IMG/VR virus record: IMGVR_UViG_2721755711_000002
Reading direction: 5' to 3' (one strand)
Source of the DNA: a virus
Taxonomy: Duplodnaviria; Heunggongvirae; Uroviricota; Caudoviricetes
DNA: 64,000 nt
The notes below the pieces were generated by a model that was given only the letters and a program-made list of their open reading frames with translations, had not been told where the DNA came from and did no database searches. Shown here in pieces: positions 21,932 to 49,226 of the stretch (position 1 is the first letter of the stretch; each line of letters opens with the position of its first letter). The position numbers and the translations under genes were made by a program.

Positions 21932-22171
21932 TCATTGCCATACGACGGTGCAGCCGTCGATACAGGATGTTTTCACCACGCGGCGCAGGCCGCTGAATGT
22001 CTGGATGATTTCCGTTACCGGCCATACAGGACCACCCACAGGCGGGCAGGCATAAACCACAGGTAAACGGTGATGTTGCCCCGTTACACGACCGCCGGTG
22101 GTGTGGATGGCCACACGGGCACGGGAACGGACGGCATTAATGGTCTGCTTTTCCATCATTTTGTTCTCCAT
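21932..22171 (-). CDS. hypothetical small early protein (Kil-position)
   Basis: 79 aa ORF immediately downstream of the B-like gene, where Mu carries kil. Confidence 0.3.
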   Translation of the reverse strand: MENKMMEKQTINAVRSRARVAIHTTGGRVTGQHHRLPVVYACPPVGGPVWPVTEIIQTFSGLRRVVKTSCIDGCTVVWQ

Positions 22172-23064
22172 CAGTGAATTAACATTTCTGAATATTTATC
22201 AATGGCCTGCACACTGACCGGTGCATCGCTGATATCACAAATCCGGTACACACCACGCGCCAGCTTGAACAGACGACGGGCATTACCCAGCGAACGTGTG
22301 TAAAGTGCCTCACCAATTTCCGGGTCCGCCGCTTCCGGCATCATGTCTGTGGCAATCTTGTTAAAATCTTCCTGCGTCAGCGTATCGCCCAGGTTAAGCG
22401 CCAGCGCCACGCGGCTGTATAATTGAGCGAACTCACCACAACGGCCCTTAAGGTTAATCAGAAGGTGAGGCATACCCGCCAGGACAATCCCGATACCCGC
22501 TTTGTCATGCAGACGGCGCAATACCTCCAGTGCACGATAGGGGAGCAGTTCAGCCTCATCCACCATCAGCAGACGACCTGACCCACGCAGTTCACGCACA
22601 CAGGCATCAATCTTCTCGCGAATATCGCCGTGAACCTTTATGCCCAACTGGCGGCACAGTTCATCGAGTAACTTTCTGGCCGTATAGCCAATATCGGCTT
22701 CAATGAGCACTACATCCCGGTTTCTGGCGGCATATTCACTCAGAATCATGCTTTTACCCAGGCCCGCCGCGCCATACAGAACGCAAATATCACACTCCAG
22801 ATGGGCGTAGGTCAGTACTTCCAGCCCTTTGGCAGCCATGCCGGTGGTGACAAATCGCACTTTAATACGGCGGTTGTTTTCCTTTTCCCATTCACGGGTC
22901 ACAAAGGCAGAAATGCGTTCTTCAATATCAGCCATATCGCCCTGATATTTGCCCTGCAAATACTGGTTGATAACAGCGCTGCTACGACCAATAGCACGGG
23001 CAACGTGGGTCTGCGTAAAGCCGCGACGGGCCATTACGTCATTTAATTGCGTAATTAAACTCAT
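22171..23064 (-). CDS. Mu B-like transposition target-capture ATPase (AAA+)
   Basis: 297 aa; N-terminal HTH-like segment followed by Walker A LYGAAGLGKS; directly downstream of the MuA-like gene. Confidence 0.8.
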   Translation of the reverse strand: MSLITQLNDVMARRGFTQTHVARAIGRSSAVINQYLQGKYQGDMADIEERISAFVTREWEKENNRRIKVRFVTTGMAAKGLEVLTYAHLECDICVLYGAAGLGKSMILSEYAARNRDVVLIEADIGYTARKLLDELCRQLGIKVHGDIREKIDACVRELRGSGRLLMVDEAELLPYRALEVLRRLHDKAGIGIVLAGMPHLLINLKGRCGEFAQLYSRVALALNLGDTLTQEDFNKIATDMMPEAADPEIGEALYTRSLGNARRLFKLARGVYRICDISDAPVSVQAIDKYSEMLIH

Positions 23065-23082: not shown

Positions 23083-25125
23083 TTAACGATTATTTGTGCC
23101 GTTTTTCTTTAAATTGCGCTCACGGTCAGACACGAATAAATAAAGTTCTTCTTTTTCCTTTTTCTCCTGGCGTTCCAGTCCATATCCCAGATTAAACTCA
23201 GGTTTCTGCGTAATAGCCGGGGTAAGTTCGCGTTTAGCCTCTTCGATTTTCTGCGTGGCCCGTGCAATGCGGCCTCGGGCGCGTTTCTCCTGCTGCTGTT
23301 CGATAACGGCTTTCGGGAACGCATCGACCTTGTTACCGTTCCAGATGGCATCGCAGATATAAGAACCGTCCATTCGCCTGACAATCACGCTGTTTGCGTC
23401 GTGAATGTCGTAACAAACCCTGACTTCATTTCCGTGCTCTGCTGCCAGTTCTGTGGAGAAATAGATGTTTCTGAATAACACCACTTCACCGCGTCGCACC
23501 GTGCAGATGCTTTCCGGTCGGAACATTTCATGCAGTTCTTCCGGCGACAGCATGTCGATTTCAGCCTTTTGCTCTTTTATCAGTTTCCGGCGATACGCTG
23601 CCGGGCTGTAATGTTCGCCATCCTCTTTGCGGGGAAGGCTGCTGTGTGGTCGGTTGTTATACCGTTTCACCTCCAGCTCTATTGCGGCCAGCAGTTGCTC
23701 AAAGGTGGGGACTTCTCCCATCGCTTTAACCTGCCGTTTTGTCAGCTCTTTCCCTTTGTGGGTGGCCTTAATGGCTGACTGTGTGATGCGTTGCTGCATC
23801 ATCACCGTTTCCTTGTCTGCATTTTTTGAGCAGTACGTCTGGAAACTCAGGGCCACATCTTTGGGTATTCCTTTGTTTGCCCGTTCTATTACCCCGCGCC
23901 CCTGCGGGTTACCAGGTATCCCCGTGTGATGCTCCACACCCAGTCGGGGCAGAATCCCGGTAATATCGGCATCAAGCACCCGGTTTTTTTCACCGCCCCC
24001 GTTATCGGAGTAATAAATCAGCGGTATTCCGTGTTGTGACATGCCATGACGCAATGCATCAGCAACGGCTATCACGTTCTCCGACAGGGACAGCGACCAG
24101 CCCACAATAAAGCGTTGCCCCGCATCCATAACCAGCGTCACTTCTGGCCGGAATGTATTCCCGGTGGCGGGGCTGAATGCCATCAGTTTCATACAGTGAC
24201 CATCCCCGACCCATACCGCATTAACCGGTAATGTGCTCCAGTCGCGCCGCACAAAGGGATTGAGCGAACGCCAGGCTGAACCGGTGGAGCGGAAACGCTC
24301 CTTCACAATCACCGGGACGTTGCTTAACACCCGTCTTACTGCGTGAACTGAAGGCAGTGCTGCCAGCATTCCTGCGTCATTCGCGTGCTTTTCATGCCAC
24401 CAGGCTGAAAACTCGCGATACGCATATTCAACGGTCGGGCGCTTCCATGAGCGATAGAACATAAAGAAATCGCTCAACCACCAGACCTGCTCCCACGGTG
24501 TTCCCTTATGATGACCGGGAGCCAGTAACGCCAGTAACTGATTGGCATCACCGCGCGCCATCAACCAGGCGGAATACCATTCCTGCAAACTTCCCCAACT
24601 GACGCCAGTTCGCTTACCCTGTCTGGCGTTTGCAGTGCCTGCGGCCTCAATAATGCGGTCAGGTAACGCCCCCATGCGCACACCATCAATGATGTGTTTT
24701 ACTGCTGCCGTCCTGGACATTCCTGCGTATTCACGCAGTTTATGCACTTCGGTAGCCAGCAATATCCGCGCATCAGCGATGGCCTTTTGCTTGTCGGTCA
24801 GTGCCTGAACTTCGCGTAATGCCAGTTCCGGGCATTTGACCATCACTTCCAGTTCATCGCGAACGGTGACGTTTTTAACTGCCTTCTGCTCAACCACGGC
24901 GGGCAGTTGCGCATCTTCCAGAACCTGATGAGTCAGGCGCTTACGTAAAACTTTCTGCGCTTCAGTGGGCAGGCAGTCGATGTGATACTCGAATGCTTTG
25001 GTGCCTTCACGCTTGCGCTTCCATTCCGGGTGCGTCTCTGTGATCCGATTGAGCGTCCAGCGCACCCCCTGAACTGTACCGGGCAAACCAGGAAGACCGG
25101 CCAGCTCATTGGCTGAATAAAACAT
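23083..25125 (-). CDS. Mu-type DDE transposase (MuA-like)
   Basis: 680 aa ORF between ner-like and B-like genes; size and organisation as Mu A. Confidence 0.8.
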   Translation of the reverse strand: MFYSANELAGLPGLPGTVQGVRWTLNRITETHPEWKRKREGTKAFEYHIDCLPTEAQKVLRKRLTHQVLEDAQLPAVVEQKAVKNVTVRDELEVMVKCPELALREVQALTDKQKAIADARILLATEVHKLREYAGMSRTAAVKHIIDGVRMGALPDRIIEAAGTANARQGKRTGVSWGSLQEWYSAWLMARGDANQLLALLAPGHHKGTPWEQVWWLSDFFMFYRSWKRPTVEYAYREFSAWWHEKHANDAGMLAALPSVHAVRRVLSNVPVIVKERFRSTGSAWRSLNPFVRRDWSTLPVNAVWVGDGHCMKLMAFSPATGNTFRPEVTLVMDAGQRFIVGWSLSLSENVIAVADALRHGMSQHGIPLIYYSDNGGGEKNRVLDADITGILPRLGVEHHTGIPGNPQGRGVIERANKGIPKDVALSFQTYCSKNADKETVMMQQRITQSAIKATHKGKELTKRQVKAMGEVPTFEQLLAAIELEVKRYNNRPHSSLPRKEDGEHYSPAAYRRKLIKEQKAEIDMLSPEELHEMFRPESICTVRRGEVVLFRNIYFSTELAAEHGNEVRVCYDIHDANSVIVRRMDGSYICDAIWNGNKVDAFPKAVIEQQQEKRARGRIARATQKIEEAKRELTPAITQKPEFNLGYGLERQEKKEKEELYLFVSDRERNLKKNGTNNR

Positions 25126-25361: not shown

Positions 25362-25543
25362 TAGGTTACCCTTAAAAGTTATCCGTGCGGATAACACCGC
25401 CGTGTTATCCCTTCGGATATAAGTATTGATCCATATGTAACCCATGTAAAGCAAAAATAGCCTTTTCTTTGTATTTTCTTTTTGCTTTTGGTCTTTATAT
25501 GGTTTTGTGATTGAAAATCAATTGGTTAAATAGGAAAGGAAAA
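25362..25543. promoter_or_regulatory. divergent early/repressor promoter-operator region
   Basis: AT-rich intergenic region between divergently transcribed ner-like and repressor genes, analogous to the Mu Pe/Pc operator region; no motif-level assignment made. Confidence 0.4.
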
Positions 25544-26191
25544 ATGACAAAAAATGATGACGCTTTTTCTTTAGTTGACCGAGGAAAAGAAAGTTTTAGA
25601 GAGCGTTTAGTAAAACTAATAGGTGGGCGCAGTGTCAGAACTGCCGCGAGCGACTGGGGTATCCCTCCTTCAACCTTAAACAACTACATCCATAAAGGAA
25701 CAGAACCCTCTTTTAAAATAGCCTGCCTTATCTCAGATAAAGAGCGGGTGAGTTTAAATTGGCTCGCTTATGGTGAGGAACTCACCGCCACAGCAAACTC
25801 TTTATCAAACCAAACAGCGCAGCCTTCTCCCGATATTACAAACGAGCTAGCTAACGAGTTATTGAAAAGAGCGTCCACAGAAGATAAAGAACTATTGATA
25901 AATGCAATATGTGATATGGGTATCAAAGGAATCCTAAAACGTCTGCAACAACCCACTAGGCAAGCGAAACAAGCCGCTAACACGCTGGAGGAGCAAGAGA
26001 ATGCTATCCAAAGTCTGAATATCAGGAAATCACTTAAGGATGCAATCCGAGTAGCATTACATGGAAACGAAGATACTGACAGAGAGATTTTGCGAATTGT
26101 TGAATCTCATATACGACCACAATCGCCGGGTGATCAGACCGATGTCACACCGGAGCAAGAAACAAAATCTGTAAGTAAAAAATCAGCATGA
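25544..26191 (+). CDS. prophage repressor (HTH, XRE/CI-like)
   Basis: 215 aa from ATG 25544 (SD AGGAAAGGAAAA); N-terminal HTH-like segment (...RTAASDWGIPPSTLNNYIHKG...VSLNWLAYGE); divergent from ner-like gene. Confidence 0.55.
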   Translation: MTKNDDAFSLVDRGKESFRERLVKLIGGRSVRTAASDWGIPPSTLNNYIHKGTEPSFKIACLISDKERVSLNWLAYGEELTATANSLSNQTAQPSPDITNELANELLKRASTEDKELLINAICDMGIKGILKRLQQPTRQAKQAANTLEEQENAIQSLNIRKSLKDAIRVALHGNEDTDREILRIVESHIRPQSPGDQTDVTPEQETKSVSKKSA

Positions 26192-26479: not shown

Positions 26480-26755
26480 TTGATCACTACCCCACAGGTA
26501 ACAGAAGACGGTCGTCATGTTGAGGAAGTGCATGTCCTGGGGGATATGTACCGCCTGGAGTTCTATCCGCGTAACACTCATCTTGCAGCGAAGATTGAGT
26601 ATTGCCGGGACGGGAATATTCCGTGCATTCCTGTAGAAAAAGAGGATGAAGCCTACATCATCACACTGAACGGTGACACGGCGCGTTGTATCTGTCGTGG
26701 CGACAGTGAAGCCCGGAATGAAATAGCAAGATGTCGCGCCCATACAGATAAATAA
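26480..26755 (+). CDS. hypothetical ORF, possibly a 3' gene fragment truncated by the Mu-like insertion
   Basis: ORF begins only with a TTG call immediately outside the Mu-like end, without a convincing SD; followed by a strong terminator. Confidence 0.25.
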   Translation: MITTPQVTEDGRHVEEVHVLGDMYRLEFYPRNTHLAAKIEYCRDGNIPCIPVEKEDEAYIITLNGDTARCICRGDSEARNEIARCRAHTDK

Positions 26756-26764
26756 AAAGCAAAA

Positions 26765-26795
26765 ACCCCGGCTGCGGGAACAGTTCGGGGTTTTC
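26765..26795 (+). terminator. rho-independent terminator
   Basis: CCCCGGCTGCGGGAACAGTTCGGGG stem-loop followed by TTTT. Confidence 0.5.
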
Positions 26796-26826
26796 TGTTT
26801 CTGACCTTGAGTAAGCAAGGGAGAAC

Positions 26827-27009
26827 ATGGAGAAGTATAAACGAATTCTGTTTAGGTTGACTATGAAAAACGGCCTTGAATTGAAAGCGCCTGTAACTGA
26901 TGACATCAGCAGAGCGGTGGCTTTTGCCATTAAGTGGGTGGCTGTCGGTATCGCTGTGTCTCCGATTCTGTATGGGATGGCAAAATTGATCATTGCTGTG
27001 AAATCGTAA
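26827..27009 (+). CDS. small C-terminally membrane-anchored protein
   Basis: 60 aa; strong SD AAGGGAGA; C-terminal hydrophobic helix. Confidence 0.4.
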   Translation: MEKYKRILFRLTMKNGLELKAPVTDDISRAVAFAIKWVAVGIAVSPILYGMAKLIIAVKS

Positions 27010-27027
27010 GTGGGGCAGGGGTAAATA

Positions 27028-27161
27028 TGTCAGATAGCATTATAAAACTGGCGCGAATTCTCTGTGTGGTTGTTGGCCTTTCATTTTCAGCAATGTTGGT
27101 TGCCATTTTCATTTCCACCGCCTGGCGAGTATTGAGCTTATCCGGATTGATTGGTGGATAG
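27028..27161 (+). CDS. small hydrophobic membrane peptide
   Basis: 44 aa, almost entirely one transmembrane helix; SD-like GGGG upstream. Confidence 0.3.
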
Positions 27162-27165
27162 TGAG

Positions 27166-27348
27166 ATGAAGCGAAAACACTGGACACACAGAATGCCGCG
27201 AACGGCGGCGAAATGGGTACTGGTAGCGATACTGGTGCCTTTTTTCCTGGTGGGATGCGTCAGCCTGGATAAGGCGCGCCAGCTTTTCGATACGGCTTCT
27301 CAGGTCTGCGAAATTGTCGACGGTGTTCGACAGTGTCTGCAGAGCTGA
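27166..27348 (+). CDS. small lipoprotein, paralog of 14162..14344
   Basis: 60 aa; HWTHR motif, lipobox LVGC, conserved QLFD...VC.I.DG.RQC core shared with the Mu-like copy. Confidence 0.5.
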   Translation: MKRKHWTHRMPRTAAKWVLVAILVPFFLVGCVSLDKARQLFDTASQVCEIVDGVRQCLQS

Positions 27349-27510
27349 TCGCCCGTAAGAGCAGAATATTTTGCTGAAAAATGAAGGATGTGTCAGCGTC
27401 CGGAAAGCATGAAATTCTGCTGCGTGTACCAATTTTATCTTATTCATTCTAAATCTTGCCGAATCAAGCAACTGCCCGGGCGGCAAGGGGTATTTTTATC
27501 CGGAGGGGAT

Positions 27511-27735
27511 ATGAAGAGATTACTGGTAACCGTAAAGCCCTTTAACGGAACGATTCCATTCAGGGTTTTGCAGCGTGGACGTGTTCTGGTTAAGGATATC
27601 TTCAGTGGTAAATGCACGGAATGTTATTCCCGGACATATGAAGTGGATGCCACGGATGAAGAAATTTCTGTTGAATGTGATCTGAACGCGAATATGGCGG
27701 GGATTGTAACAGCCACGTTGTTGCCGGTTTCATGA
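27511..27735 (+). CDS. hypothetical small protein
   Basis: 74 aa from ATG 27511 with SD GGAGGGG. Confidence 0.35.
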   Translation: MKRLLVTVKPFNGTIPFRVLQRGRVLVKDIFSGKCTECYSRTYEVDATDEEISVECDLNANMAGIVTATLLPVS

Positions 27736-27777
27736 ATGACATAGAATGTCTCCGGGTACCCAAAAGGAGAACACTAT

Positions 27778-27991
27778 GTTTGTAGAAAATAACCTGAAGG
27801 CTGATCCTGATAATCAGGGATGGGTTCTGGGTTGGGCTGTAGTACGTGACAAACCGTGGCATCTGGTCGGTATTTATGCGACGGAGGATGGCGCAAAGTC
27901 TAAACGCTCTGAATTGAATGGGGAGTATGAAGTTCGTTATGGTTCCCATCGTTTAGGTAGTGATGATTTTATGTCTGTCGGACTTAGCTAA
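27778..27991 (+). CDS. hypothetical small protein
   Basis: 71 aa from ATG 27778 with SD AAGGAGA. Confidence 0.35.
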
Positions 27992-28052
27992 CTGGCTGTG
28001 ATGCCTGTTTGTAGCCCCGCAAATGCGGGGCTTTTTATATTTGGAGACGATA

Positions 28053-28445
28053 ATGAAAAAAACAGAAAATAAACCGGTTGCAATTGGTGCCGCTGTTGTT
28101 CCGTTTAAGTTTGAGTTGTCTCAACTGGTGGAGATGCGCATCAGTGATGAATGGGGTGAGGTTAAAGCCCGCGCGCAGTATGCGGATGGCGAAAACCAGT
28201 ACTTGATCCACTACAAGGCTGCTGATGGTCGCGCCACAACGGCGTGGTTTGGTGAGTCAATGCTGGAAGCAACAGAAGATGATCGCCATCCGGGCTGTCC
28301 GGTATTTGCCGGTATGAAATTACCGGAAGGCGCAGTTGAACTGCAGCCGGGTGAGGTGTTCGTAATGTCAGAAGTCATTGATGGCAAACCGCAGTATTCA
28401 CGTATTGAAACTAACGGCAAGGACGTTTGTCTGGTTCGCAAGTAA
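28053..28445 (+). CDS. hypothetical protein
   Basis: 130 aa from ATG 28053 with SD GGAGA; followed by a hairpin. Confidence 0.4.
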   Translation: MKKTENKPVAIGAAVVPFKFELSQLVEMRISDEWGEVKARAQYADGENQYLIHYKAADGRATTAWFGESMLEATEDDRHPGCPVFAGMKLPEGAVELQPGEVFVMSEVIDGKPQYSRIETNGKDVCLVRK

Positions 28446-28456
28446 CTTGCATTACA

Positions 28457-28479
28457 GCAGCCCTTCAGTGAAGGGCTGC
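28457..28479 (+). terminator. stem-loop without U-tract (weak terminator or RNA stability element)
   Basis: GCAGCCCTT CAGTG AAGGGCTGC, 9 bp stem. Confidence 0.3.
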
Positions 28480-28841
28480 GATAATGTGAGAAATAAAAAA
28501 CCGGTCACAGGGAGCAGCTACACAGAACCGGCCGGCGAAGACCGCCAATACCACCCATGCTTCAGTAAAACATGCATATGACATTAGCTGGTATTGATGT
28601 AAATGCAATGTTACGCATCGACAAAAATAAAAAACCGGCAGGGGAAATCCATGGAAGATTTGCCGGTGGCAAAAGTTGCCAATGCTTTTATAACCGTAGT
28701 CGCAGAGTTGCGGAGTGCAACTACGAATGCTGCAGGTATATGGCTGAATGGCGTTTCAATGATGTACGTCATCTTATCTGTAAATGTTAATGATAAACGC
28801 TCCCATTTGTGCGGGTCCTTTCCGGGAGTTGAAACACCGGG

Positions 28842-28882
28842 GGTCATGGGACGCGCAAAAACGCGCTATTTATGAAAATTTT
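28842..28882 (+). other. cos site (cosN-like cohesive-end region) of the lambda-like packaging module
   Basis: CTATTTATGAAAATTTT (28866..28882) is identical to the segment immediately right of cosN at the phage lambda left end as I recall it; lies about 185 bp upstream of the Nu1-like start as in lambda. Nick positions not determined. Confidence 0.5.
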
Positions 28883-29027
28883 TCGAGTTCCACTTCCGGT
28901 TTTTTAATTATCTAACCAATTGATTAGATTGTTTTTAGTTATCAAGAAAACCGGAAGTCCGACCAGTTTGTGGGAAAATAGCGGCAAAAACGGAGTTGAG
29001 TGTAAAGTGAACAGCTAAAGAGGGTGT

Positions 29028-29537
29028 ATGGCAACGCAGGCGGAGGTAGCCGAGCATCTTGGTATAACTGAACGCTGGTTGCGGGATCTTCAGAAGCACC
29101 CGGGAGCGCCAAAAAATCGAAAGCGTGGTGAATACGATATTGATGCCTGGCGATATTTTTATATTTCATACCTTAAACGCAAAGGAAGAAGCGATACTGA
29201 TGACGATGGAAATAGCGATTACGAAGAAAAATTACTTATCGCCAGATGGAAATTGACTGAAGAACAGGCAATAGCACAGCAATTAAAAAATCAGGTAACC
29301 GAAGGCAAGCTCATTGATTCTGGGTTCTGCGTTTTCGCTCTCAGCAAACTGGCGATGGCATTGTCCAGTACGCTTGATTCCATTCCTTTATCCATGCAGC
29401 GACAGTTCCCGGATTTAACCCCGCGTCATATCGATTATCTGAAAACCCTTATCGCAAAAGGCGCGAATCAGTGTGCGCGGACAGGGGATAAATTGCCGGA
29501 GTTACTCGATGAATATATCCGAACTACAGCTGAATAA
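29028..29537 (+). CDS. nu1: terminase small subunit (lambda Nu1-like)
   Basis: 169 aa; ...FCVFALSKLAMALSSTLDSIPLSMQRQFPDLTPRHIDYLK... parallels remembered lambda Nu1 (...FCTFVLSRIAGEIASILDGLPLSVQRRFPELENRHVDFLK...). Confidence 0.8.
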   Translation: MATQAEVAEHLGITERWLRDLQKHPGAPKNRKRGEYDIDAWRYFYISYLKRKGRSDTDDDGNSDYEEKLLIARWKLTEEQAIAQQLKNQVTEGKLIDSGFCVFALSKLAMALSSTLDSIPLSMQRQFPDLTPRHIDYLKTLIAKGANQCARTGDKLPELLDEYIRTTAE

Positions 29538-31425
29538 TATGATGGCTGCTGTTTCAGTTGCGCTGCAGCCTCTGGTCAGGGTTGTACCGATGACGGCAGT
29601 TGAATGGGCTGATCAAAATTATTATCTGCCTAAAGAATCGTCATACGGTGATGGGGAATGGAAAACACTGCCGTTCCAGGTCGCCATTATGAACAGCATG
29701 GGGCACGACAGGATCCGCACTGTTAATCTGATTAAATCGGCGCGTGTGGGTTACACCAAAATGCTGCTGGGCGTGGTCGGGTATTTTATTGAGCATAAAT
29801 CCCGTAACAGCCTGCTCTTCCAGCCGACAGATTCCGCAGCTGAAGATTTTATGAAAGCGCATGTGGAAGCAACGCTCCGGGATGTCCCCAGCCTTAAAGC
29901 GTTATCGCCATGGCTGGGCAGAAAACATCGTGACAACACACTCACTCTGAAGCGTTTTTCCTCCGGCGTGGGGTTCTGGTGCCTGGGGGGTGCCGCTGCT
30001 AAAAACTACCGTGAAAAATCAGTGGATGTGGTCTGCTATGACGAACTCTCCTCGTTTGAACCGGATGTGGAAAAGGAAGGCTCGCCAACGCTGCTTGGCG
30101 ATAAACGTATCGAAGGTTCGGTATGGCCTAAATCCATACGCGGCTCAACGCCAAAAATTAAAGGTTCCTGTCAGATTGAAAAAGCCGCGAACGAATCTGC
30201 ACATTTTATGCGGTTTTATGTGCCATGCCCTCATTGTGGTGAAGCCCAGTATCTTAAGTTTGGCGATGATGCGACAACCTTTGGCCTGAAATGGGAGAAG
30301 GGTAAACCGGAAACGGTGTATTACCTGTGTGAACATAATGGCTGTGTGATCCGGCAGTCGGAGCTTGACCAGACCGACGGGCGCTGGATTTGTGACAATA
30401 CCGGGATGTGGACGCGTGACGGCCTGGCATTTTACAGCGCCGGTGATGAGGAGATGCCGCCACCGCGCTCAATCACGTACCACGTGTGGACAGCGTACAG
30501 TCCGTTCACCACCTGGGTACAGATTGTTTATGACTGGCTGGATGCGCTGAAGGATCCGAACGGTGTCAAGACGTTTATTAACACCACGCTCGGGGAGCCC
30601 TATGAAGAGGCCGTGGCAGAAAAACTGAGCTTTGAGTTGTTGCTGGAAAAAGTCTGCCACTATGATGCGCAGGTTCCCCTGCGGGTGGTTTACCTGACTG
30701 CCGGGATCGACTCCCAGAAAGATCGCTATGAAATTTATGTCTGGGGCTGGGCTCCCGGCGAAGAAGCCTTTCTGATTGACAAGCAAATTATCATGGGGCG
30801 ACCGGAGGACGAGGACACCCTTAAACGTGTTGATGCGGTGATCCGGAAAAAATACCGCCATGCTGACGGTACTGAAATTTCCATTTCCCGCGTCTGCTGG
30901 GATACCGGTGGTATCGACCAGGACATTGTGTATCAGCGTTCCAGGAAACACGGCACTTTTTTTGTGCTTCCCATAAAAGGGGCATCGGTGTATGGCAAGC
31001 CGGTGATCACCATGCCCAAAAAGCGCAACCAGCGTGGTGTGTTTTTGTGTGAGGTGGGCTCCGATACCGTCAAGGAAATGCTGTACGCCCGTTTTGCCCT
31101 GCCGGTGGTTTCTGCCAGTGAAGCAGCCCCGTATACCTTCCGTTTTCCGGATAACCCGGACATTTTTTCGGAAGAAGAGGCGCGTCAAATCGTAGCGGAA
31201 GAACTGGTGGAAAAGGTGGTTAACGGCAGGGTGAAACTGCTGTGGGATAAAAAAGGGCGACGCAACGAAGCCCTCGACTGCCTGGTATATGCTTATGCCG
31301 CCCTGCGCGTTTCGGTACAGCGGTGGCAACTGGACCTTGAAGCGCTGGCGAGGGCACGAAGAGATGAGCAGGATGAGGATGATATGAGCATGGAAGAGAT
31401 CGCGGCTGCACTGAGTGGAGGATAA
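29509..31425 (+). CDS. A: terminase large subunit (lambda gpA-like)
   Basis: Start MNISELQL...; ...TAVEWADQNYYLPKES..., ...WPKSIRGSTPKIKGSCQIEKAA..., ...CPHCGEAQYLKFGD... track remembered lambda gpA; overlaps Nu1 end as in lambda. Confidence 0.85.
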   Translation: MNISELQLNNMMAAVSVALQPLVRVVPMTAVEWADQNYYLPKESSYGDGEWKTLPFQVAIMNSMGHDRIRTVNLIKSARVGYTKMLLGVVGYFIEHKSRNSLLFQPTDSAAEDFMKAHVEATLRDVPSLKALSPWLGRKHRDNTLTLKRFSSGVGFWCLGGAAAKNYREKSVDVVCYDELSSFEPDVEKEGSPTLLGDKRIEGSVWPKSIRGSTPKIKGSCQIEKAANESAHFMRFYVPCPHCGEAQYLKFGDDATTFGLKWEKGKPETVYYLCEHNGCVIRQSELDQTDGRWICDNTGMWTRDGLAFYSAGDEEMPPPRSITYHVWTAYSPFTTWVQIVYDWLDALKDPNGVKTFINTTLGEPYEEAVAEKLSFELLLEKVCHYDAQVPLRVVYLTAGIDSQKDRYEIYVWGWAPGEEAFLIDKQIIMGRPEDEDTLKRVDAVIRKKYRHADGTEISISRVCWDTGGIDQDIVYQRSRKHGTFFVLPIKGASVYGKPVITMPKKRNQRGVFLCEVGSDTVKEMLYARFALPVVSASEAAPYTFRFPDNPDIFSEEEARQIVAEELVEKVVNGRVKLLWDKKGRRNEALDCLVYAYAALRVSVQRWQLDLEALARARRDEQDEDDMSMEEIAAALSGG

Positions 31426-31428
31426 AGG

Positions 31429-31638
31429 ATGGTTTATACGCATGAAATGCTTTGCGAGGCGCGTCGGGCATTACATGAACTGATGATCGGGCGTGCTGTG
31501 GTTTCTGTCGGCAGGAACGGACGGCAGGTTCAGTATTCGCGTGCGACGATTGGTGAACTGCGGCAATACATTGAAGAGCTGGAGAGTGCGCTGGGCGTGT
31601 CCGGACGGCGTCGCGGTCCGGTGGGAGTGAGACTGTGA
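31429..31638 (+). CDS. W: head-tail joining protein (lambda gpW-like)
   Basis: 69 aa; ...ARRALHELMIGRAVVSV...RRRGP... resembles lambda gpW. Confidence 0.7.
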   Translation: MVYTHEMLCEARRALHELMIGRAVVSVGRNGRQVQYSRATIGELRQYIEELESALGVSGRRRGPVGVRL

Positions 31639-33206
31639 ATGTGGAGTTGATAGATGTTCACGGACAGCCCCTGCGACAGAGTATGGGATATTCCGGTGGC
31701 GGCTCCGGATTTGGTGGGCAGCTTGCGGAATGGTTACCTGCACCAGAAAGTGCCGACGTGGCGCTCTTACCTTCCATTCATCTGGGTAACGCCCGCGCGG
31801 ATGATCTGGTCCGTAATAATGGCATTGCCGCGAATGCTGTGGAAATTCATAAAGACCATATCGTCGGGCATATGTTTCGTCTGAGTTATCGCCCCAACTG
31901 GCGCTGGCTGGGGATGTCGGAAGCAGATTCACATGCTTTTATTGAAGATGTTGAGGCGGCGTGGATGGAATACTGCGATCCGGTGTTTGGTACGATGGAT
32001 GTGGAAGGGCGTCGTTCGTTTACCGAATTCATTCGTGAAGGGGTGGGTGTCCATACTTTTAATGGAGAAATTTTTGTCCAGCCTGTATGGGATGCGGAAT
32101 CCACGTCATTATTCCGGACGAAATTCAAAACCATCAGCCCGAAGCGTGTCAGTACACCCGGTTATGGTACCGGCGATCGTTTTATGCGTGCCGGGGTGGA
32201 AATAAACCGACACGGAAAAGCGCTGGCCTACCATGTTCAGGATGATGACTGGCCCGGCTACGGTGTCAGTAAATGGACACGAATTACGGCAACACTGCCT
32301 TCCGGACGACCGGGAATGATCCATGTGTTTCAGCCACAGGAAGACGGGCAGACCCGCGGGGCCAACCAGTTTTATTCTGTAATGGAGCGTCTCAAGATGC
32401 TCGACACACTGCAGGCCACGCAACTGCAGTCGGCGGTGGTTCGCGCCATGTATGCCGCCACGATTGAATCCACACTGGATTCGGAAAAAGCGTTTGAATA
32501 TATCGCCGGGGTGGGAGATGGAGGTAAAAATCCCCTGAACACCATCATGAAAGGCTACGCGCGTTATTACGCCACCAATACGGTAAAACTGGGCGGGGTC
32601 CGTATTCCGCATCTTTACCCGGGAGATTCACTGAATCTGCAGACAGCCCAGAATGCGGATAATGGTTTTTCTGAACTGGAAAAGGCGCTGTTACGTTACA
32701 TTGCTGCCGGACTGGGTGTGTCGTATGAGCAGCTTTCCCGGGATTATTCACAGGTCAGTTATTCCAGTGCCAGGGCATCCGCCAATGAGTCGTGGCGGTA
32801 TTTTATGGGAAAACGAAAATTTGTGGCCAGTCGCCTGGCGTCACAGATGTTTGCCTGCTGGCTGGAGGAAGCCCTTATTCGTGGTGTGATCCGTCCGCCG
32901 AAATCCCGTTTCTCATTCTGGGAGGCTCGTTCCGGGTGGTGCCGTGCCGAGTGGATTGGTGCCGGTCGTATGGCGATTGATGGCCTTAAGGAAGTGCAGG
33001 AAGCGGTGATGCGCATTGAAGGCGGCCTGAGTACATACGAGAAAGAGCTGGCCCTGATGGGGGATGACTATCAGGAGATTTTCCGCCAGCAGCTACGGGA
33101 AACTCAGGAGCGACAGGCTGCCGGTCTTCCGCGTCCGGTCTGGATAAAGGACGCGTTTCAACAGCAGATCCGACAGACAACGGGAGAAAAAGGCGATGCG
33201 CTGTAA
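31635..33206 (+). CDS. B: portal protein (lambda gpB-like)
   Basis: 523 aa ORF following W-like gene, overlapping start/stop; lambda head gene order. Confidence 0.8.
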   Translation: MNVELIDVHGQPLRQSMGYSGGGSGFGGQLAEWLPAPESADVALLPSIHLGNARADDLVRNNGIAANAVEIHKDHIVGHMFRLSYRPNWRWLGMSEADSHAFIEDVEAAWMEYCDPVFGTMDVEGRRSFTEFIREGVGVHTFNGEIFVQPVWDAESTSLFRTKFKTISPKRVSTPGYGTGDRFMRAGVEINRHGKALAYHVQDDDWPGYGVSKWTRITATLPSGRPGMIHVFQPQEDGQTRGANQFYSVMERLKMLDTLQATQLQSAVVRAMYAATIESTLDSEKAFEYIAGVGDGGKNPLNTIMKGYARYYATNTVKLGGVRIPHLYPGDSLNLQTAQNADNGFSELEKALLRYIAAGLGVSYEQLSRDYSQVSYSSARASANESWRYFMGKRKFVASRLASQMFACWLEEALIRGVIRPPKSRFSFWEARSGWCRAEWIGAGRMAIDGLKEVQEAVMRIEGGLSTYEKELALMGDDYQEIFRQQLRETQERQAAGLPRPVWIKDAFQQQIRQTTGEKGDAL

Positions 33207-34812
33207 TTTATCACATATTGCCGCGATGGCATTTAATGAGCCGCTTTTACTGGAACCCGCCTATGCGCGGGTTTTCTTTTGCGCACTGGGTAAGGAAATT
33301 GGGGCGGGCAGCCTTGCCGTTCCGCAGCAGGCCGTTCAGCTTGATGCCGATGGTATGCAGCTGGCGGTTACCGATTATATGACTGGTGGTCCGCGTCCGG
33401 TAAAGAGTTACCAGGTGAAAAATGGTATTGCCATTCTGCCGGTGAGCGGCACGCTGGTACATAAAATGGGCACCCTGCGGCCATATTCCGGTATGACCGG
33501 TTATGACGGTCTGACTGCCCGTCTTAAGTCAGCGGTGAACGACCCGGATGTACGCGGCATTTTACTGGATATCGACAGTCCGGGCGGTCAGGCTGCCGGG
33601 GCGTTTGACTGTGCTGACATGATTTACCGTCTGCGGGAACAGAAGCCCGTGTGGGCGCTGTGTAATGACATGGCCTGTTCAGCCGCCATGTTGCTGGCGG
33701 CGGCCTGTACGCGTCGGCTGGTCACGCAGACGGCAAAAATTGGTTCGATTGGTGTGATGATGGCGCACACCAGTTACGAGAAACAACTGGCACAGGAAGG
33801 CGTGGATATCACGCTGATTTACTCCGGGCAGCACAAGGTTGACGGCAACAGTATTCAGGCGTTGCCGACAGGTGTGCGTGCGGATTTTCAGCGCCGTATT
33901 GATGAGGCCCGCCGGATGTTTGTCGACAAGGTGGCACTTTATACGGGGCTGAGTTCAGCGGTGGTGATGAATACCGAGGCTGCCGTTTATGACGGTCAGG
34001 CAGGCATTGATACAGGCCTGGCTGATCAACTGATTAATGCTGCAGATGCCGTTGATGTAATGGTTTCTGCTCTGAACGACTCTGTTACACAGGAGAATAC
34101 GATGACAACAAAAAATCTCACCGTTGCTGAAGCGGTGTCCCAGGAAAATCAGCGCGTGATGGGGATCCTGAATTGTCAGGAGGCGAAAGGACGCGAAAAA
34201 CTGGCGCAGATGCTGGCAGGTCAGCAGGGAATGTCAGTTGAGCAGGCAAAAACATTACTGGCGGCAGCACCGGTTGCCGGTACTGACAGCACAGGCGATC
34301 AGATTGTGGCACTTCCGGAAGCAAAAGGACGTGAACAACTGGCACGGACGCTGGCTGAACAGCCGGGAATGACGGTGGAGCAGGCGAAAACGTTACTGGC
34401 AGCGGCACCGATTGCCGGTGCGGCAAGTACCGGCGAGCAGATTATGGCACTTCCGGAAGCAAAAGGGCGTGAACAACTCGCACAGGCGCTGGCTGAACAG
34501 CCGGGAATGACTGTGGAACAGGCGAAAATGCTACTGGCAGCGGCACCGGCAACCGGTACGGCAAGTACCGGCGATCAAATTATTGCGTTGCCGGAAGCAA
34601 AAGGACGCGAAAAACTGGCACAGGCGCTGGCCGAACAGCCGGGAATGACAGTGGAGCAGGCGAAAACACTGCTGGCAGCTGCGCCATCAGTATCGCAACC
34701 GTCACAGGTAACACTTTTTGAGCGCTTCATGGCACAGCATGCCGCCAGTGCCGTTTCCGGTGGCGGAACTGCCGGGAACGGGGAAGAAGAACTGCTGATG
34801 AGTATGCCGTAA
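33196..34812 (+). CDS. C: prohead protease / scaffold (lambda gpC/Nu3-like, S49 family) with expanded C-terminal repeats
   Basis: 538 aa; N-terminal half in the ClpP/S49 position; C-terminal half has four tandem 46 aa repeats. Confidence 0.75.
   Translation: MRCNLSHIAAMAFNEPLLLEPAYARVFFCALGKEIGAGSLAVPQQAVQLDADGMQLAVTDYMTGGPRPVKSYQVKNGIAILPVSGTLVHKMGTLRPYSGMTGYDGLTARLKSAVNDPDVRGILLDIDSPGGQAAGAFDCADMIYRLREQKPVWALCNDMACSAAMLLAAACTRRLVTQTAKIGSIGVMMAHTSYEKQLAQEGVDITLIYSGQHKVDGNSIQALPTGVRADFQRRIDEARRMFVDKVALYTGLSSAVVMNTEAAVYDGQAGIDTGLADQLINAADAVDVMVSALNDSVTQENTMTTKNLTVAEAVSQENQRVMGILNCQEAKGREKLAQMLAGQQGMSVEQAKTLLAAAPVAGTDSTGDQIVALPEAKGREQLARTLAEQPGMTVEQAKTLLAAAPIAGAASTGEQIMALPEAKGREQLAQALAEQPGMTVEQAKMLLAAAPATGTASTGDQIIALPEAKGREKLAQALAEQPGMTVEQAKTLLAAAPSVSQPSQVTLFERFMAQHAASAVSGGGTAGNGEEELLMSMP
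34176..34727 (+). repeat. four tandem in-frame 138 bp repeats inside the protease/scaffold gene
   Basis: Repeat unit EAKGRE.LA..LA.Q.GM.VEQAK.LLAAAP.AG..STG.QI.ALP; anchors at about 34183, 34320, 34458, 34596. Confidence 0.75.
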
Positions 34813-34852
34813 GCGGGGATCCGTGATTCAGATAAATCAGGAGACTGAGAAA

Positions 34853-35188
34853 ATGATTAAAACCACCACAGAAAAGCGCGCGGACGGGCGCATTTTTGCC
34901 GGAAGCGATCCGGTGTATACCGCAACAGGTACCAGTGGTATCAGTGTTGCCACGCCTTCACTGACGCCACTGATGCTGGATGACGCCAGCGGAAAACTGG
35001 TGGCATGGGATGGTCAGAAAGCCGGAACGGCTGTGGGGGTGCTGGCACTGGCGCTGGCCGGGACCGAGCCCGTACTGACGTACTACAAAAGCGGTACGTT
35101 TGCCACCGAATCGCTGGTCTGGCCGGATTCGGTGGATGCGGTGAAAAAAGCCAACGCGTTTGTGGGAAGTGCCATCAGCCACGCCTGA
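34853..35188 (+). CDS. D: head decoration protein (lambda gpD-like)
   Basis: ...TPLMLDDASGKLVAWDG...YYKSGTFATESLVWPD...FVGSAIS resembles lambda gpD; SD AGGAGA. Confidence 0.75.
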   Translation: MIKTTTEKRADGRIFAGSDPVYTATGTSGISVATPSLTPLMLDDASGKLVAWDGQKAGTAVGVLALALAGTEPVLTYYKSGTFATESLVWPDSVDAVKKANAFVGSAISHA

Positions 35189-35258
35189 TGGTGAAGTGAT
35201 TAACTGAAAAAAACGGGTCGTGATGCGGCCCGTTTGTGTTTTTAAAGGAAAGTCAATT

Positions 35259-36287
35259 ATGGGGTTATTTACCACGCGTCAGTTGCTCGGCTACACCGAG
35301 CAGAAAGTGAAATTCCGTGCGCTGTTTCTGGAGCTGTTTTTTCGTCGTACGGTCACTTTCCATACTCAGGAAGTGATGCTGGATAAAATCACCGGAAAAA
35401 CACCGGTTGCGGCATATGTGTCTCCGGTTGTGTCAGGTAAGGTACTGCGCAGTCGTGGTGGTGAAACCCGCGTGTTACGCCCCGGCTATGTTAAACCAAA
35501 ACACCGGCTGGATTATCAGCAGGCGGTGGAGCGTCTTCCGGGGGAAGATCCGGCCCGTCTTAATGACCCGGCCTACCGTCGCCTGCGTATTCTGACTGAC
35601 AACCTGAAACAGGAAGAGCAGGCGATTGTGCAGGTGGAAGAAATGCAGGCGGTCAGCGCTGTTCTGCAGGGTAAGTACACCATGAGCGGTGAACAGTTTG
35701 AGACGGTGGAAGTGGATTTTGGACGTTCTGCCGCCAATAACATTACGCAGGCAGGGGGACGCGAATGGTCAAAACAGAATGCTGACACCTTTGATCCGAC
35801 GCATGATCTGGATGCGTACTGCGATTTTGCTTCCGGTACCATCAATATTGCGATTATGGACGGTACTGTCTGGCGTATGCTGAACGGTTTTAAGCTGTTT
35901 CGTGAAAAACTGGATACCCGCCGTGGCTCAAAATCTGAACTGGAAACCGCGCTGAAAGATCTGGGTTCCGTGGTTTCTTTTAAAGGTTATTACGGTGATC
36001 TGGCCATCATGGTGGCGAAAACAACGTATGTTGATGAAAACGGGGATGAGCAGCGTTATCTGCCGGAAGGCACACTGATTCTTGGAAACACTCAGGTGGA
36101 GGGTGTCCGTTGTTATGGCGCAATCCAGGATAACCAGGCGCTGAGTGAAGGGATCACCTCTGCAATTCGTTATCCGAAACACTGGTTAGAGGTGGGGGAC
36201 CCGGGGTGCGAATATACCATGACGCAGTCTGCGCCGTTGATGGTGTTGCCGGATCCGGACGCGTTTGTGGTGGTTCAGGTGAAATAA
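35259..36287 (+). CDS. E: major capsid protein (lambda gpE-like)
   Basis: Start MGLFTTRQLL; ...YVSPVVSGKVLRSRGG...PGYVKPKH..., ...VEEMQAVSAVLQGKYTMSGEQF..., ...TQSAPLMVLPDPDAFVVVQV match lambda gpE closely. Confidence 0.85.
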   Translation: MGLFTTRQLLGYTEQKVKFRALFLELFFRRTVTFHTQEVMLDKITGKTPVAAYVSPVVSGKVLRSRGGETRVLRPGYVKPKHRLDYQQAVERLPGEDPARLNDPAYRRLRILTDNLKQEEQAIVQVEEMQAVSAVLQGKYTMSGEQFETVEVDFGRSAANNITQAGGREWSKQNADTFDPTHDLDAYCDFASGTINIAIMDGTVWRMLNGFKLFREKLDTRRGSKSELETALKDLGSVVSFKGYYGDLAIMVAKTTYVDENGDEQRYLPEGTLILGNTQVEGVRCYGAIQDNQALSEGITSAIRYPKHWLEVGDPGCEYTMTQSAPLMVLPDPDAFVVVQVK

Positions 36288-36291
36288 GGTC

Positions 36292-36318
36292 AGGCGGGAT
36301 ATTCCCGCCTTTTTCTTT
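36292..36318 (+). terminator. rho-independent terminator-like hairpin after capsid gene
   Basis: AGGCGGGATATTCCCGCCT followed by TTTTCTTT. Confidence 0.5.
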
Positions 36319-36337
36319 ATCGCACAGGAGAGATGTG

Positions 36338-46815: not shown

Positions 46816-47306
46816 TGATGGTGGATTTTGTTGGCTTTGGCGCAAACATGATTGAGCGCAAGGCATGGGACAGGATTGGTTCATTAACCGATGTGGCCTC
46901 GCGGGTCATGCTGTCGTTTGGTGAGTTTGAGTTCAGTATTGATTCAGCGGCGTATAACGCCATGAAGCGCACCATGGAATGGCGATGGGATGAGCAGCAG
47001 TTAATCGGAAAAAAGGATCTGCTGCAGTATACCGGTAAGGGGGCCAGAACGATAAGCCTTGAAGGGATGGTTCATGCGGGATTTCGTGACGGTGTGGGGA
47101 TGGATGCCCTTGATACGCTGGTTCAGATGGTGGATAAAAATCCTGCGCCGCATCTGCTGGTTTCCGGGACGGGGGATGTGATGGGGTATTTTGTTGTAAC
47201 CGCCTATTCAGATAACACCACGTCCTTTCTTCCCGGCGGTGCGCCGAAAAACAAAACGTTCACACTGGAGCTGAAATACTATGGCGAAAAACTGGCGGAC
47301 CACTGA
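46815..47306 (+). CDS. U: tail protein (P2 gpU-like)
   Basis: ORF after tape measure with overlapping stop/start (TGATG). Confidence 0.65.
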   Translation: MMVDFVGFGANMIERKAWDRIGSLTDVASRVMLSFGEFEFSIDSAAYNAMKRTMEWRWDEQQLIGKKDLLQYTGKGARTISLEGMVHAGFRDGVGMDALDTLVQMVDKNPAPHLLVSGTGDVMGYFVVTAYSDNTTSFLPGGAPKNKTFTLELKYYGEKLADH

Positions 47307-47499
47307 CGGCGATATGCTGGATGATATCTGTCAGAGACACTACGGCAGCGCCGGACTCAACCAGTCACTGGCGGCGGTACTGGAGGCTAATCCCGGGCTG
47401 GCTGATCTTGGTCCGGTGTATCCGTCCGGGGTGGAAATCGTGTTACCGGACTGGACATATGAGCCGGAAGAGAAGGAGACGTTTCAGTTATGGGACTGA
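47281..47499 (+). CDS. X: tail protein X (P2 gpX-like)
   Basis: 72 aa ORF between U-like and D-like genes, overlapping both. Confidence 0.6.
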   Translation: MAKNWRTTDGDMLDDICQRHYGSAGLNQSLAAVLEANPGLADLGPVYPSGVEIVLPDWTYEPEEKETFQLWD

Positions 47500-48590: not shown

Positions 48591-49226
48591 ATGTCTGTAT
48601 TAATTTCGGGTGTGCTGACGGATGGCGCGGGACTCCCCATGTCCGGATACCATATTATTCTGAAAGCCAGACAGAATACATCCGCAGTGGTCATGAGAAC
48701 GGTGGCTACAGTGATGACAGGTCCGGCAGGAGAATATGCTTTTGAAGCTCAGACCGGAAAATATGACGTTTATCTTCGGTCGTGTATTGAAAGGGAATAC
48801 TGTGTCGGTGATATTTCGGTTTACGACGACTCAAAGCCCGGCACGCTGAACGACTTTTTGACCGCTCTCGACGAAGGCGACCTCAAACCCGACGTGGTGA
48901 AACGCTTTGAGGAAATGGTGGCGCAGGCGCAGCAGGGTGCCGAAACTGCAACAGAAAGCGAACGACAGGCAGGGCAACATGCAGACGCTGCCGCCCGGGC
49001 AAAAGAAGATGTAAAAAAACTGGTGGAAGGTGTTCAGCAGAACGCCGACGCGGTTGCGGAGGGTAAACAACAGGCCGAAACTCTGGTCTCACAGGTTGAG
49101 GATACCGCCGCAGAGGTCAGGCAGGATGCTGAAGCCGCGAAAAAGGCCGCATCTGATGCAGAGCATGTCAGGGAGGATATTGACACTGCGTTATCTGCGA
49201 CACTGAAAACGGCGAATCGCCTGTAA
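48591..49226 (+). CDS. side tail fibre N-terminal domain protein (Stf N-terminal fragment)
   Basis: 211 aa; ...ISGVLTDGAGLPMSGYHIILKAR...GKYDVYL...VYDDSKPGTLNDFLTA...PDVVKRFEEMV... parallels remembered lambda Stf N-terminus; stop codon lies in the junction core. Confidence 0.6.
   Translation: MSVLISGVLTDGAGLPMSGYHIILKARQNTSAVVMRTVATVMTGPAGEYAFEAQTGKYDVYLRSCIEREYCVGDISVYDDSKPGTLNDFLTALDEGDLKPDVVKRFEEMVAQAQQGAETATESERQAGQHADAAARAKEDVKKLVEGVQQNADAVAEGKQQAETLVSQVEDTAAEVRQDAEAAKKAASDAEHVREDIDTALSATLKTANRL

Follow-up and report, generated by a model that had tools for sequence, protein, structure and literature searches.

The DNA in front of the terminase genes of the virus record IMGVR_UViG_2721755711_000002 raises the question of whether a prophage with a P2-type tail and disrupted surroundings still possesses a cos site of the lambda type and, if so, how much of that site is lambda's own. 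The whole stretch analysed, hereafter the window, comprises 64,000 nucleotides. A first-pass annotation of the letters alone had described a retained lambda-type cos region at 28842-29027, pointing to a 17-mer identical to the lambda left-end sequence adjacent to cosN and to an AT-rich segment with 11 bp inverted repeats before Nu1, and had taken these features as support for a packaging-competent module.

Comparison with the lambda cos site

Alignment of the region to the joined ends of lambda (J02459) showed that the word shared with the lambda left end is real, but that it is a 19-mer (CGCTATTTATGAAAATTTT, 28864-28882, identical to lambda bp 23-41) instead of a 17-mer. It occurs once in the 64-kb window, and was found with up to two mismatches in none of 100 dinucleotide-preserving shuffles. 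Because the stretch from the 19-mer to the equivalent of lambda bp 13 is free of indels, the two sequences are in gap-free register from bp 13 to bp 41, and lambda bp 1 corresponds to position 28842, where the segment of the first-pass annotation begins. It should be noted that the 19-mer begins 10 bp to the right of the cohesive-end-equivalent position, inside the segment equivalent to I2, and has no contact to cosN; it supports I2 only, and does not bear the weight that had been put on it as a sign of an adjacent cosN.

A second block, GGGTCCTTTCCGG at 28813-28825, is identical to lambda 48473-48485 at 13 of 13 bases and includes the 7-bp cosQ (GGGTCCT, 28813-28819, plus strand), located 29 nt before the inferred bp 1 (30 nt in lambda). 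This block sits just upstream of the segment covered by the first-pass annotation, where it was overlooked. The I2-equivalent spacer (28859-28891, plus strand; lambda bp 18-50), which holds the 19-mer, is AT-rich (33% GC) and carries A5, A4 and T5 tracts. The lambda I2 (bp 18-50) is likewise AT-rich, and is essential, cis-acting, statically bent and conserved among lambda-like phages (PMC4856287).

The concern that the match might be restricted to the 17-mer by chance was thus dispelled by the alignment, in which cosQ, I2 and the start of terS stand at lambda spacing. The whole region aligns with lambda subsite for subsite, in the order cosQ, cosN, I2, an R3-like site, an I1-like IHF site, an inverted R2-like site and terS. 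Judged from this alignment, the region is a lambda-type cos homologous to that of lambda, and not a chance word. Its relatives among deposited phages had to be retrieved by distant blastn; a megablast search of the cos region against deposited phages returned an upstream match only.

The segment between cosN and terS

The AT-rich segment with inverted repeats is present as described, but the perfect repeat is of 12 nt rather than 11, with a left arm ACTTCCGGTTTT at 28892-28903 (plus strand) and a right arm AAAACCGGAAGT at 28947-28958 (minus strand), and extends to 24 nt at 79% complementarity. No perfect inverted repeat of 12 nt or more was found in 500 shuffles of 28842-29027 (the longest was 10 nt), only four loci of the window have a comparable one, and the arm sequence ACTTCCGGTTTT has two exact copies only in the window, i.e. 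the two arms themselves. The 43-bp segment between the arms (28904-28946) has a GC content of 21%, compared with 52% for the whole window. On its minus strand lies AATCAATTGGTTA (28913-28925), an exact match to the IHF consensus WATCAANNNNTTR. Taken alone, this consensus is not significant (4 matches in the window vs 2.3 expected), and its support comes from its position at lambda-frame bp 72-84, the lambda I1 segment being bp 65-90 (PMC4856287).

The left arm occupies lambda-frame bp 51-62, where lambda has R3 (bp 50-65, with contacts at bp 55-63; PMC9026076), and the right arm bp 106-117, in the orientation opposite to R3. The inverted repeat and the IHF consensus reproduce the R3-I1-R2 layout of cosB at lambda positions, the two arms being putative TerS-binding sites. 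Of the cosN plus cosB proposed before Nu1, the cosB layout can be upheld, whereas the cosN is not lambda's (see below). A third R copy in R3 orientation (R1) was also sought in the window, and no match above chance was found. The weak R1-like candidate AACTCCGTTTTT (28986-28997, minus strand) matches the arm at 9 of 12 positions in R2 orientation, and matches to the arm with three mismatches arise by chance about 56 times per window. A clear third R copy, in R2 orientation, is present at the aligned place in the relatives of the PhiR12 type. R1 is accessory in lambda and absent from N15 (PMC4669245).

Terminase genes and packaging specificity

The terS gene (29028-29537, plus strand; 169 aa, Nu1-like small terminase) starts at bp 187 (191 in lambda) and is overlapped by terL (29509-31425, plus strand; 638 aa), a gpA-like large terminase assigned to the PHROG large terminase subunit. 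Both the overlap and the adjacency of a Nu1-type TerS and a gpA-type TerL are as in the lambda Nu1-A pair. TerL shares 64% identity with lambda gpA and 90% with the TerL of E. coli R1, GpA_ATPase and GpA_nuclease domains are annotated in identical contexts, and by analogy the protein is expected to nick cosN. The terS, terL and head genes are intact, with lengths as in relatives.

The product of terS is predicted to combine an N-terminal winged helix-turn-helix (wHTH) of a non-lambda type with a lambda-like Nu1 C-terminal part. A model of residues 1-56 is a wHTH, with MerR, RppC and the DNA-binding domains of lambda-family TerS proteins as nearest structures; a whole-protein Foldseek search was uninformative. 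A phmmer search of TerS against PDB sequences did not match Nu1, the N-terminus showing no sequence match to lambda Nu1, and this N-terminus (MATQAEVAEHLGITERWLRDLQKH) cannot be aligned with that of lambda (MEVNKKQLADIFGASIRTIQNWQEQG) beyond topology.

The relation between this domain and the repeat arms was apparent from a set of 57 loci sharing the cosN type of the window, in which the sequence at the R3 position is of at least six classes, each with a TerS N-terminal type of its own (at least six as well). The pairs are a TerS with VKVNKKKLAEIFECDVRTI and GATCCGTTCTTCTTC at the R3 position (lambda-like), a TerS with NVDPRTIERW and CATGTCGGTACTTC (21-like), MAYGEEMACLLNKSDM and GGTGGTTGTTGTT (N15/Monarch-like), VATQTEVARHLSLTDRQLRRL and CATGTCCGGTTTC (PhiR12 type), MASQAEVAAHLLLSDRRLRDL and TTTCCGGTTCCGG (705R4 type, with terS at bp 80), and MATQAEVAEHLGITERWLRDL and ACTTCCGGTTTT (window type). 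The lambda-like, 21-like and N15/Monarch-like pairs agree with published R3 sequences, that of N15 being GAGGTTGTTGTT (PMC4669245). In addition, a related TTCCGGTT core goes with the related TerS N-termini of PhiR12, vB_EcoM-705R4 and the Aeromonas phage phiARM81ld; in the latter two, which are distant and have a related TerS N-terminus, TTTCCGGTTCCGG is found at the same position.

This perfect co-variation of the arms with the predicted wHTH N-terminus of TerS suggests a packaging specificity unlike those of lambda, 21 and N15. In line with this, the R sequence of the window is ACTTCCGGTTTT, not CGTTTCCNTTCT, i.e. it lacks the packaging specificity of lambda. From the sequences, ACTTCCGGTTTT and the MATQAEVAEH-type wHTH would constitute a TerS/cosB pair outside the lambda, 21, N15/Monarch and gifsy-1 classes. 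The nearest deposited phages with respect to this pair belong to the PhiR12 group, with a TerS 75% identical and an R core CATGTCCGGTT; a literature search on PhiR12 found nothing relevant. More remote are vB_EcoM-705R4 and phiARM81ld, whose TerS N-terminal domain is related at 54-57% identity and which have the R core TTCCGGTT in common with the window; the cosN flank type of 705R4 is also that of the window. Unlike the window, these phages have a simple cos comparable to the simple cosB of N15, in which a single R-like site is present and terS starts at bp 79-80, with a tandem TTCCGGTTCCGG about 25 bp before terS and no IHF-spaced inverted pair, and they differ in the TerS C-terminus and in TerL (43% identical).

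The cosN variant and its distribution

The definition of a lambda-type cos includes 12-base 5' cohesive ends with significant identity to GGGCGGCGACCT (PMC4669245). The lambda cohesive end GGGCGGCGACCT is absent here. The inferred cosN (28840-28855) contains at 28842-28853, in the lambda register, the 12-mer GGTCATGGGACG, which agrees with GGGCGGCGACCT at 5 of 12 bases (bp 1, 2, 4, 8 and 11). CG stands at the right flank (28854-28855) and GG, instead of the conserved CG, at the left one (28840-28841); in relatives, the left flank is AG or GG. The idea that the cosN of lambda itself had been retained must therefore be abandoned.

With carets marking the nick positions predicted from the lambda register, the window belongs to a family with a non-canonical cosN that reads ACACCG(G/A)G^GG-N7-ACG^CGCAAAAAC. 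The flank type GAAACACCG(G/A)G^GG-N7-ACG^CGCAAAAACGC is common to SerU-LTIIb, vB_EcoM-705R4, E. coli PapRG-04-4, A19 and STEC308. This cosN type was found in at least 50 IMG/VR contigs (pattern AAACACCG-N11-ACGCGCAAAAAC) and in 80 of 5426 complete E. coli genomes, and its pattern was matched in a scan of species-representative genomes by Escherichia whittamii only, apart from two probable chance matches in unrelated MAGs; having one genome per species, the latter scan is a weak guide to frequency.

The conservation of the cosN flanks in the set of 57 loci is partly imposed by the search pattern. The same does not apply to cosQ and I2, neither of which is in the pattern, and which stand at a fixed distance before cosN and as a block after it, respectively, in all variant-type loci. 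The cosQ heptamer is the same in 57 of 57 of these loci, and I2 is near-invariant, the 705R4 subgroup apart. Within cosN, bp -1, 1 and 2, which the search pattern did not specify either, are invariant in the 57 loci, while bp 3-9 carry at least 16 alleles. The exact allele of the window recurs in the loci L029, L051, L189, L028 and L060.

When the scan was anchored on cosQ and I2 only, the canonical 12-mer was found in about 90 of 121 matches, and the variants were concentrated at bp 6-12, in agreement with the published pattern (PMC4669245); among the 121 sites, the cosQ-to-cosN distance was 30 in 113 and 29 in 8. Natural cosN variants known so far include N15 (bp 9 and 12), gifsy-1 (bp 8, 9 and 11), phiD326, and mEp213/LLS (GGGCGGCGCGCT) (PMC4669245, PMC12315714). 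In the known lambda-like variation, the right half of the overhang varies and cosQ is fixed (PMC4669245, PMC12315714), and for canonical-type sites the scan anchored on cosQ and I2 concurs. In the family of the window, in contrast, bp 3-6 of the left half and the -2 flank vary too, i.e. positions that have been reported as conserved.

Overhang alleles and TerS/cosB classes assort independently of each other, GGTCATGGGACG being associated with the window, lambda-like and 21-like classes, and the same holds for overhang alleles and the spacer between cosQ and cosN. More generally, the cosN type of the window occurs with lambda-like, 21-like and N15/Monarch-like cosB/TerS pairs, and this is reminiscent of the lambda, 21, N15/Monarch and gifsy-1 classes, which have cosQ, cosN and I2 in common and an exchangeable cosB and TerS recognition domain (PMC4669245). 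Eleven loci with identical TerS show a single variable site in the 174-bp cosB (a substitution in L007, the other ten being 100% identical) and two in the 12-bp overhang (bp 5 and 7), and all four of the four possible spacer/core combinations are seen among them. The location of two of the three variable sites in the 12-bp overhang corresponds to a hypergeometric p of about 0.01, a rough figure, and the sites are non-independent. TerL does not follow the cosN type either: E. coli R1, with its 90%-identical TerL, has CACG^GGGCGGCAGCGT^CGCGG. This agrees with the published view of TerL as an enzyme of low sequence specificity that is positioned by TerS (PMC9026076).

Position of the nicks

Homology with lambda predicts that the nicks are in the lambda register, with a 12-nt 5' overhang GGTCATGGGACG (28842-28853). 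For the right nick, the prediction can be compared with the distances to I2, R3 and terS: in the lambda register, the distances to I2 and R3 equal those of lambda, with terS at bp 187 vs 191. In lambda, the R3 distance sets the right nick and positions TerL, and 3-bp changes are severely defective (PMC9026076). As for the left nick, two alleles (L013 and L030) read GGGCGGCAGACG in the lambda register, with the lambda left half GGGCGG retained, and a hybrid locus (L104) reads GCCACG^GGTCTGGGGACG^CGCAAAAAC, with a left flank of the lambda/cdtI type that ends in CACG. Because CACG directly precedes GGTCTGGGGACG in this hybrid, the switch between cosN types appears to have occurred exactly at the left nick position. 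The records of cdtI and of phiARM81ld are linearised at the equivalent base; in phiARM81ld, cosQ lies 30 nt from the right end, and the left end GGGCGTTAGACC resembles GGTCGGTAGACG of 705R4. Among deposited phage records and viral contigs with the cosN type of the window, none begins or ends at the site. The position of the left nick is less certain than that of the right one, because it is flanked by GG where the literature describes a conserved CG.

State of the prophage

Downstream of the terminase genes there are homologues of W, B, C/Nu3, D and E, followed by a module of P2-type baseplate, fibre, sheath, tube, tape measure, U and D genes. In this prophage, head and packaging genes of the lambda type are joined to a contractile tail of the P2 type. 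An exact-protein look-up of its gpD-like tail protein gave no match.

Between the lysis genes and cos, 2.35 kb upstream of the latter, lies an inserted Mu-like prophage, whose Mu-type transposase A and B, repressor and portal are found on the minus strand at 1-26191. It encodes a repressor (25511-26191), a MuA-type transposase (23083-25125), MuB (22171-23064) and a Mu-type portal (9401-10996), all on the minus strand, along with a late activator, a GH108 lysin and a terminase. Its end, ...CCCCACA, adjoins GGTAACAG at 26496/26497, and homology to uninterrupted E. coli prophages begins at 26493-26497. What is left of the lambdoid late region between this end at 26496, which forms its left cut, and cos is a remnant with small ORFs (26497-28812, plus strand). 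At the other side, the second tail-fibre gene ends at codon 211, head-on against the equivalent gene of a third prophage; in PapRG-04-4, the same gene encodes 474 aa and is followed by attR in ompW. The idea that the two flanking prophages are copies of one Mu-like element around transposed DNA was considered and rejected, the right element being a different myovirus tail module that shares no long repeat with the left one.

At least 119 blocks of the assembly collection encode an identical TerS. In all eight of the contexts listed for these blocks, the prophage is uninterrupted and cosB is 100% identical. The order in these eight contexts is Q, holins, endolysin, small ORFs, cos, head genes and baseplate genes.

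The first-pass conclusion of a packaging-competent module goes beyond the evidence for the copy in the window, where cos, the terminase and the head genes look intact, but the Mu-like insertion that parts cos from the lysis and regulatory region and the truncated distal tail-fibre gene make unit-length cos-to-cos packaging unlikely. The late promoter and the lysis region would be separated from cos by at least 26 kb, an antisense Mu-like genome lying in between, and the cos-to-cos unit would probably be larger than a lambda-size head can hold.

Alternative explanations

Some features of the region might suggest that its likeness to lambda is a coincidence, and that the inverted repeat has nothing to do with cos, being for instance a terminator or an operator for a different regulator: a terminator-like match on the minus strand overlaps the right arm, and the N-terminus of TerS is outside the coverage of the lambda Nu1 profile. 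However, the 43 bp between the arms are no terminator geometry, and an Rfam scan of 28000-29600 gave no match. A promoter scan found none, and the terminator-like matches were judged irrelevant. The 19-mer and the 13-mer cosQ block stand at lambda spacing, with no match in 100 shuffles, and the arms co-vary with TerS type across 57 loci; the lambda alignment and this co-variation rule out a coincidence, the probability of which we consider negligible. A cos of the PICI type was also rejected, since complete terminase, head and tail genes lie downstream of the site. A further explanation is that the site is a decayed, non-functional relic in a defective prophage, whose cosN has drifted from GGGCGGCGACCT and can no longer be cut. 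The prophage is indeed broken by the Mu-like element and truncated at the tail-fibre gene, and the 12-mer is identical to lambda at 5 of 12 bases only. However, its cosN type, and even its exact allele, is found in many uninterrupted prophages with intact terminase genes, and the type is also found in the deposited phage vB_EcoM-705R4 and in SerU-LTIIb. In addition, variation is limited to bp 3-9, while cosQ and bp -1, 1 and 2 are fixed and I2 is nearly so; such a confinement between fixed neighbours is a pattern of constraint, not of decay. Finally, the terminase is known to tolerate many cosN changes, as the anchoring of TerS positions TerL (PMC4669245, PMC9026076). A relic is therefore very improbable.

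A less remote alternative, although an unlikely one, accepts a lambda-type cos but places the nicks outside the lambda register. The left nick could follow CG at 28838-28839, which would lengthen the overhang to 14 nt (GGGGTCATGGGACG); alternatively, both nicks could lie 2 bp further left, giving CG^GGGGTCATGGGA^CG (28840-28851) with both conserved CG flanks kept. The sequence ACCG^GGGG...GGGA^CG^CG does supply CG dinucleotides 2 bp off, CG flanks are reported as conserved in lambda-like phages (PMC4669245; PMC9303873, citing Vahanian 2017), and the cosQ-cosN spacing in the cosN family of the window is 29, not 30. Against a shifted register, the distance from the right nick to R3 is exactly that of lambda in the lambda register; the hybrid L104, with canonical CACG, GGTCTGGGGACG and then CG, contains a clean 12-mer in the lambda register; and it is in this register that L013 and L030 give GGGCGGCAGACG. 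Moreover, the -2 base is A in many members (CCGAG), which weakens the conserved left motif either way.

Discussion

Taken together, these data lead us to regard 28813-29027 as a lambda-architecture cos of a lambdoid prophage, with a lambda-like terminase mechanism and a non-canonical cosN, in a copy that is probably defective for unit-length packaging; we assign this reading a probability of roughly 0.8. The site is like that of lambda in the order and spacing of its subsites, in the cosQ and I2 identities over 13 and 19 bp, in the R3-like site at bp 51-62, in the IHF consensus between inverted R sites, and in the overlapping terS and terL that directly follow, with a TerL 64% identical to gpA and a TerS whose C-terminal half is Nu1-like. 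It is unlike lambda in the 12-mer (5 of 12), in the left flank (GG vs CG), in the right flank (CGCAAAAAC vs CGCGGGTTTT in lambda), in the cosQ-cosN distance (29 vs 30), in the R sequence (ACTTCCGGTTTT vs CGTTTCCGTTCTTCTT), in the wHTH of its TerS, which is unrelated in sequence, and in having no clear R1.

The most likely mechanism is that of lambda. By analogy, the wHTH domains of a TerS dimer would bind the two ACTTCCGGTTTT arms (R3 and R2), which bending of the AT-rich spacer by IHF would bring face to face. The anchored TerS would then place the gpA-like TerL so as to nick about 38 bp to the left of R3, the nicks yielding the predicted 12-nt 5' cohesive ends GGTCATGGGACG (28842-28853), while cosQ would act in termination at the downstream cos. 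Binding, bending, nicking, the length and polarity of the overhang, the use of IHF and activity itself are inferred from the likeness to lambda; the homology and spacing of the subsites, the way in which the arms co-vary with the type of TerS N-terminus, and the fold of that N-terminal domain, as modelled, are direct observations.

The diversity of the overhang deserves a more speculative comment. It is possible, though rather doubtful, that the packaging reaction itself has made bp 3-9 of this cosN family an evolutionary hot spot, and that the diversity of the ends serves as a compatibility barcode. The ends of each packaged chromosome derive from two different cos copies; mismatched cohesive ends are viable and segregate both alleles (PMC4669245). 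If mismatched ends are tolerated in this way, the overhang could be reshuffled independently of its cosQ and cosB sides and new alleles could become fixed. As a barcode, the sticky-end alleles, of which there are at least 16, with changes in the left half included, would mark compatibility among co-resident lambdoid prophages.

The cos described here is an element of an ordinary kind whose sequence version is uncommon. In the prophage, a complete packaging site of lambda architecture is retained together with its own terminase, but without the cohesive ends or the specificity of lambda, and in disrupted surroundings. The sole part of possible specialist interest is the variable core of the overhang, a subject that Vahanian et al. 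2017 (Virology 509:140) may have treated before. In this cosN family of Escherichia prophages, there is free variation in the central part of the sticky end, some of it within the left half that was supposed to be conserved, and this core recombines independently of both flanks. If confirmed, this would refine the set of cosN positions needed by the terminase, and would provide natural material on the compatibility of cohesive ends between co-resident phages and the satellites that hijack them.

Prophage surroundings of cos

To the left of cos, on the minus strand (1-26496), lies a Mu-like transposable prophage with genes for repressor, MuA- and MuB-type transposition proteins, late activator, GH108 lysin, terminase and Mu-type portal. 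The left end of this prophage reads ...CCCCACA at 26496 and its second end is outside the window. The insertion point is a small ORF in the late region of the lambdoid prophage, and cos is located 2.35 kb downstream of it. The IHF consensus 13-mer of cosB, AATCAATTGGTTA, recurs in identical form where the repressor ORF of the Mu-like prophage starts (25516-25528).

To the right of cos, the lambdoid morphogenetic module (29028-48566) combines lambda-type packaging and head genes (Nu1, A, W, B, C/Nu3, D, E, FI and FII-like) with a P2-type contractile tail, an arrangement that is common among E. coli assemblies; the tail part had no match to a deposited phage at megablast level. The head protease/scaffold (C/Nu3-like) gene (33196-34812) contains tandem repeats of about 138 bp with 79-84% identity (34176-34685).

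Beyond the module lies a third prophage fragment (49880-63782, minus strand), a myovirus tail module with genes for sheath, baseplate hub, J-like proteins, fibre, fibre-assembly protein and a tape-measure-like protein with a transglycosylase domain. An antirepressor gene is encoded on the plus strand within its span (54879-55448). The fibre genes of the two adjoining prophages carry an inverted repeat with 88% identity (41495-41893 and 50590-50988). The P2-type fibre gene has its C-terminal part in common with its counterpart in the adjoining prophage.

Where the two prophages adjoin, two N-terminal halves of tail-fibre genes meet head-on (48591-49856, centre 49221-49228), one on the plus strand (211 aa) and one on the minus strand (221 aa), with 84% identity. 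Perfect palindromic arms (49185-49220 and 49229-49264) flank the centre, CCTGTAAA, which is similar to an invertase half-site of the gix/hix type. The break falls at the same codon in both copies, past which the intact gene of E. coli PapRG-04-4, a relative with an uninterrupted prophage of the same type, reads on. The junction could be the endpoint of an inversion between two prophage genes in direct orientation, or it could be an assembly artefact.

Comparison of cos with related phages and lambda

A short cos is common to Aeromonas phage phiARM81ld (KT898133; loci L195/L196) and vB_EcoM-705R4 (locus L011), in which the N-terminal domain of TerS is 54-57% identical to that of the window. In it, cosQ is placed 30 nt ahead of the end, there is one TTTCCGGTTCCGG element only, at about bp 51-67, and terS starts at bp 79-80. 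This short cos is the simple-cosB counterpart to the complex cosB of the window.

Beside cosN, CGCAAAAACGCGC (28854-28866), when reverse-complemented, matches 10 of the 12 bases of lambda GCGGGTTTTCGC (lambda bp 14-25). Hence the A/T tract adjoining cosN seems to have the opposite orientation to that of lambda, with an A5 tract in the window versus T4 in lambda, and this could have consequences for the static bend of I2, the spacer between cosN and cosB.
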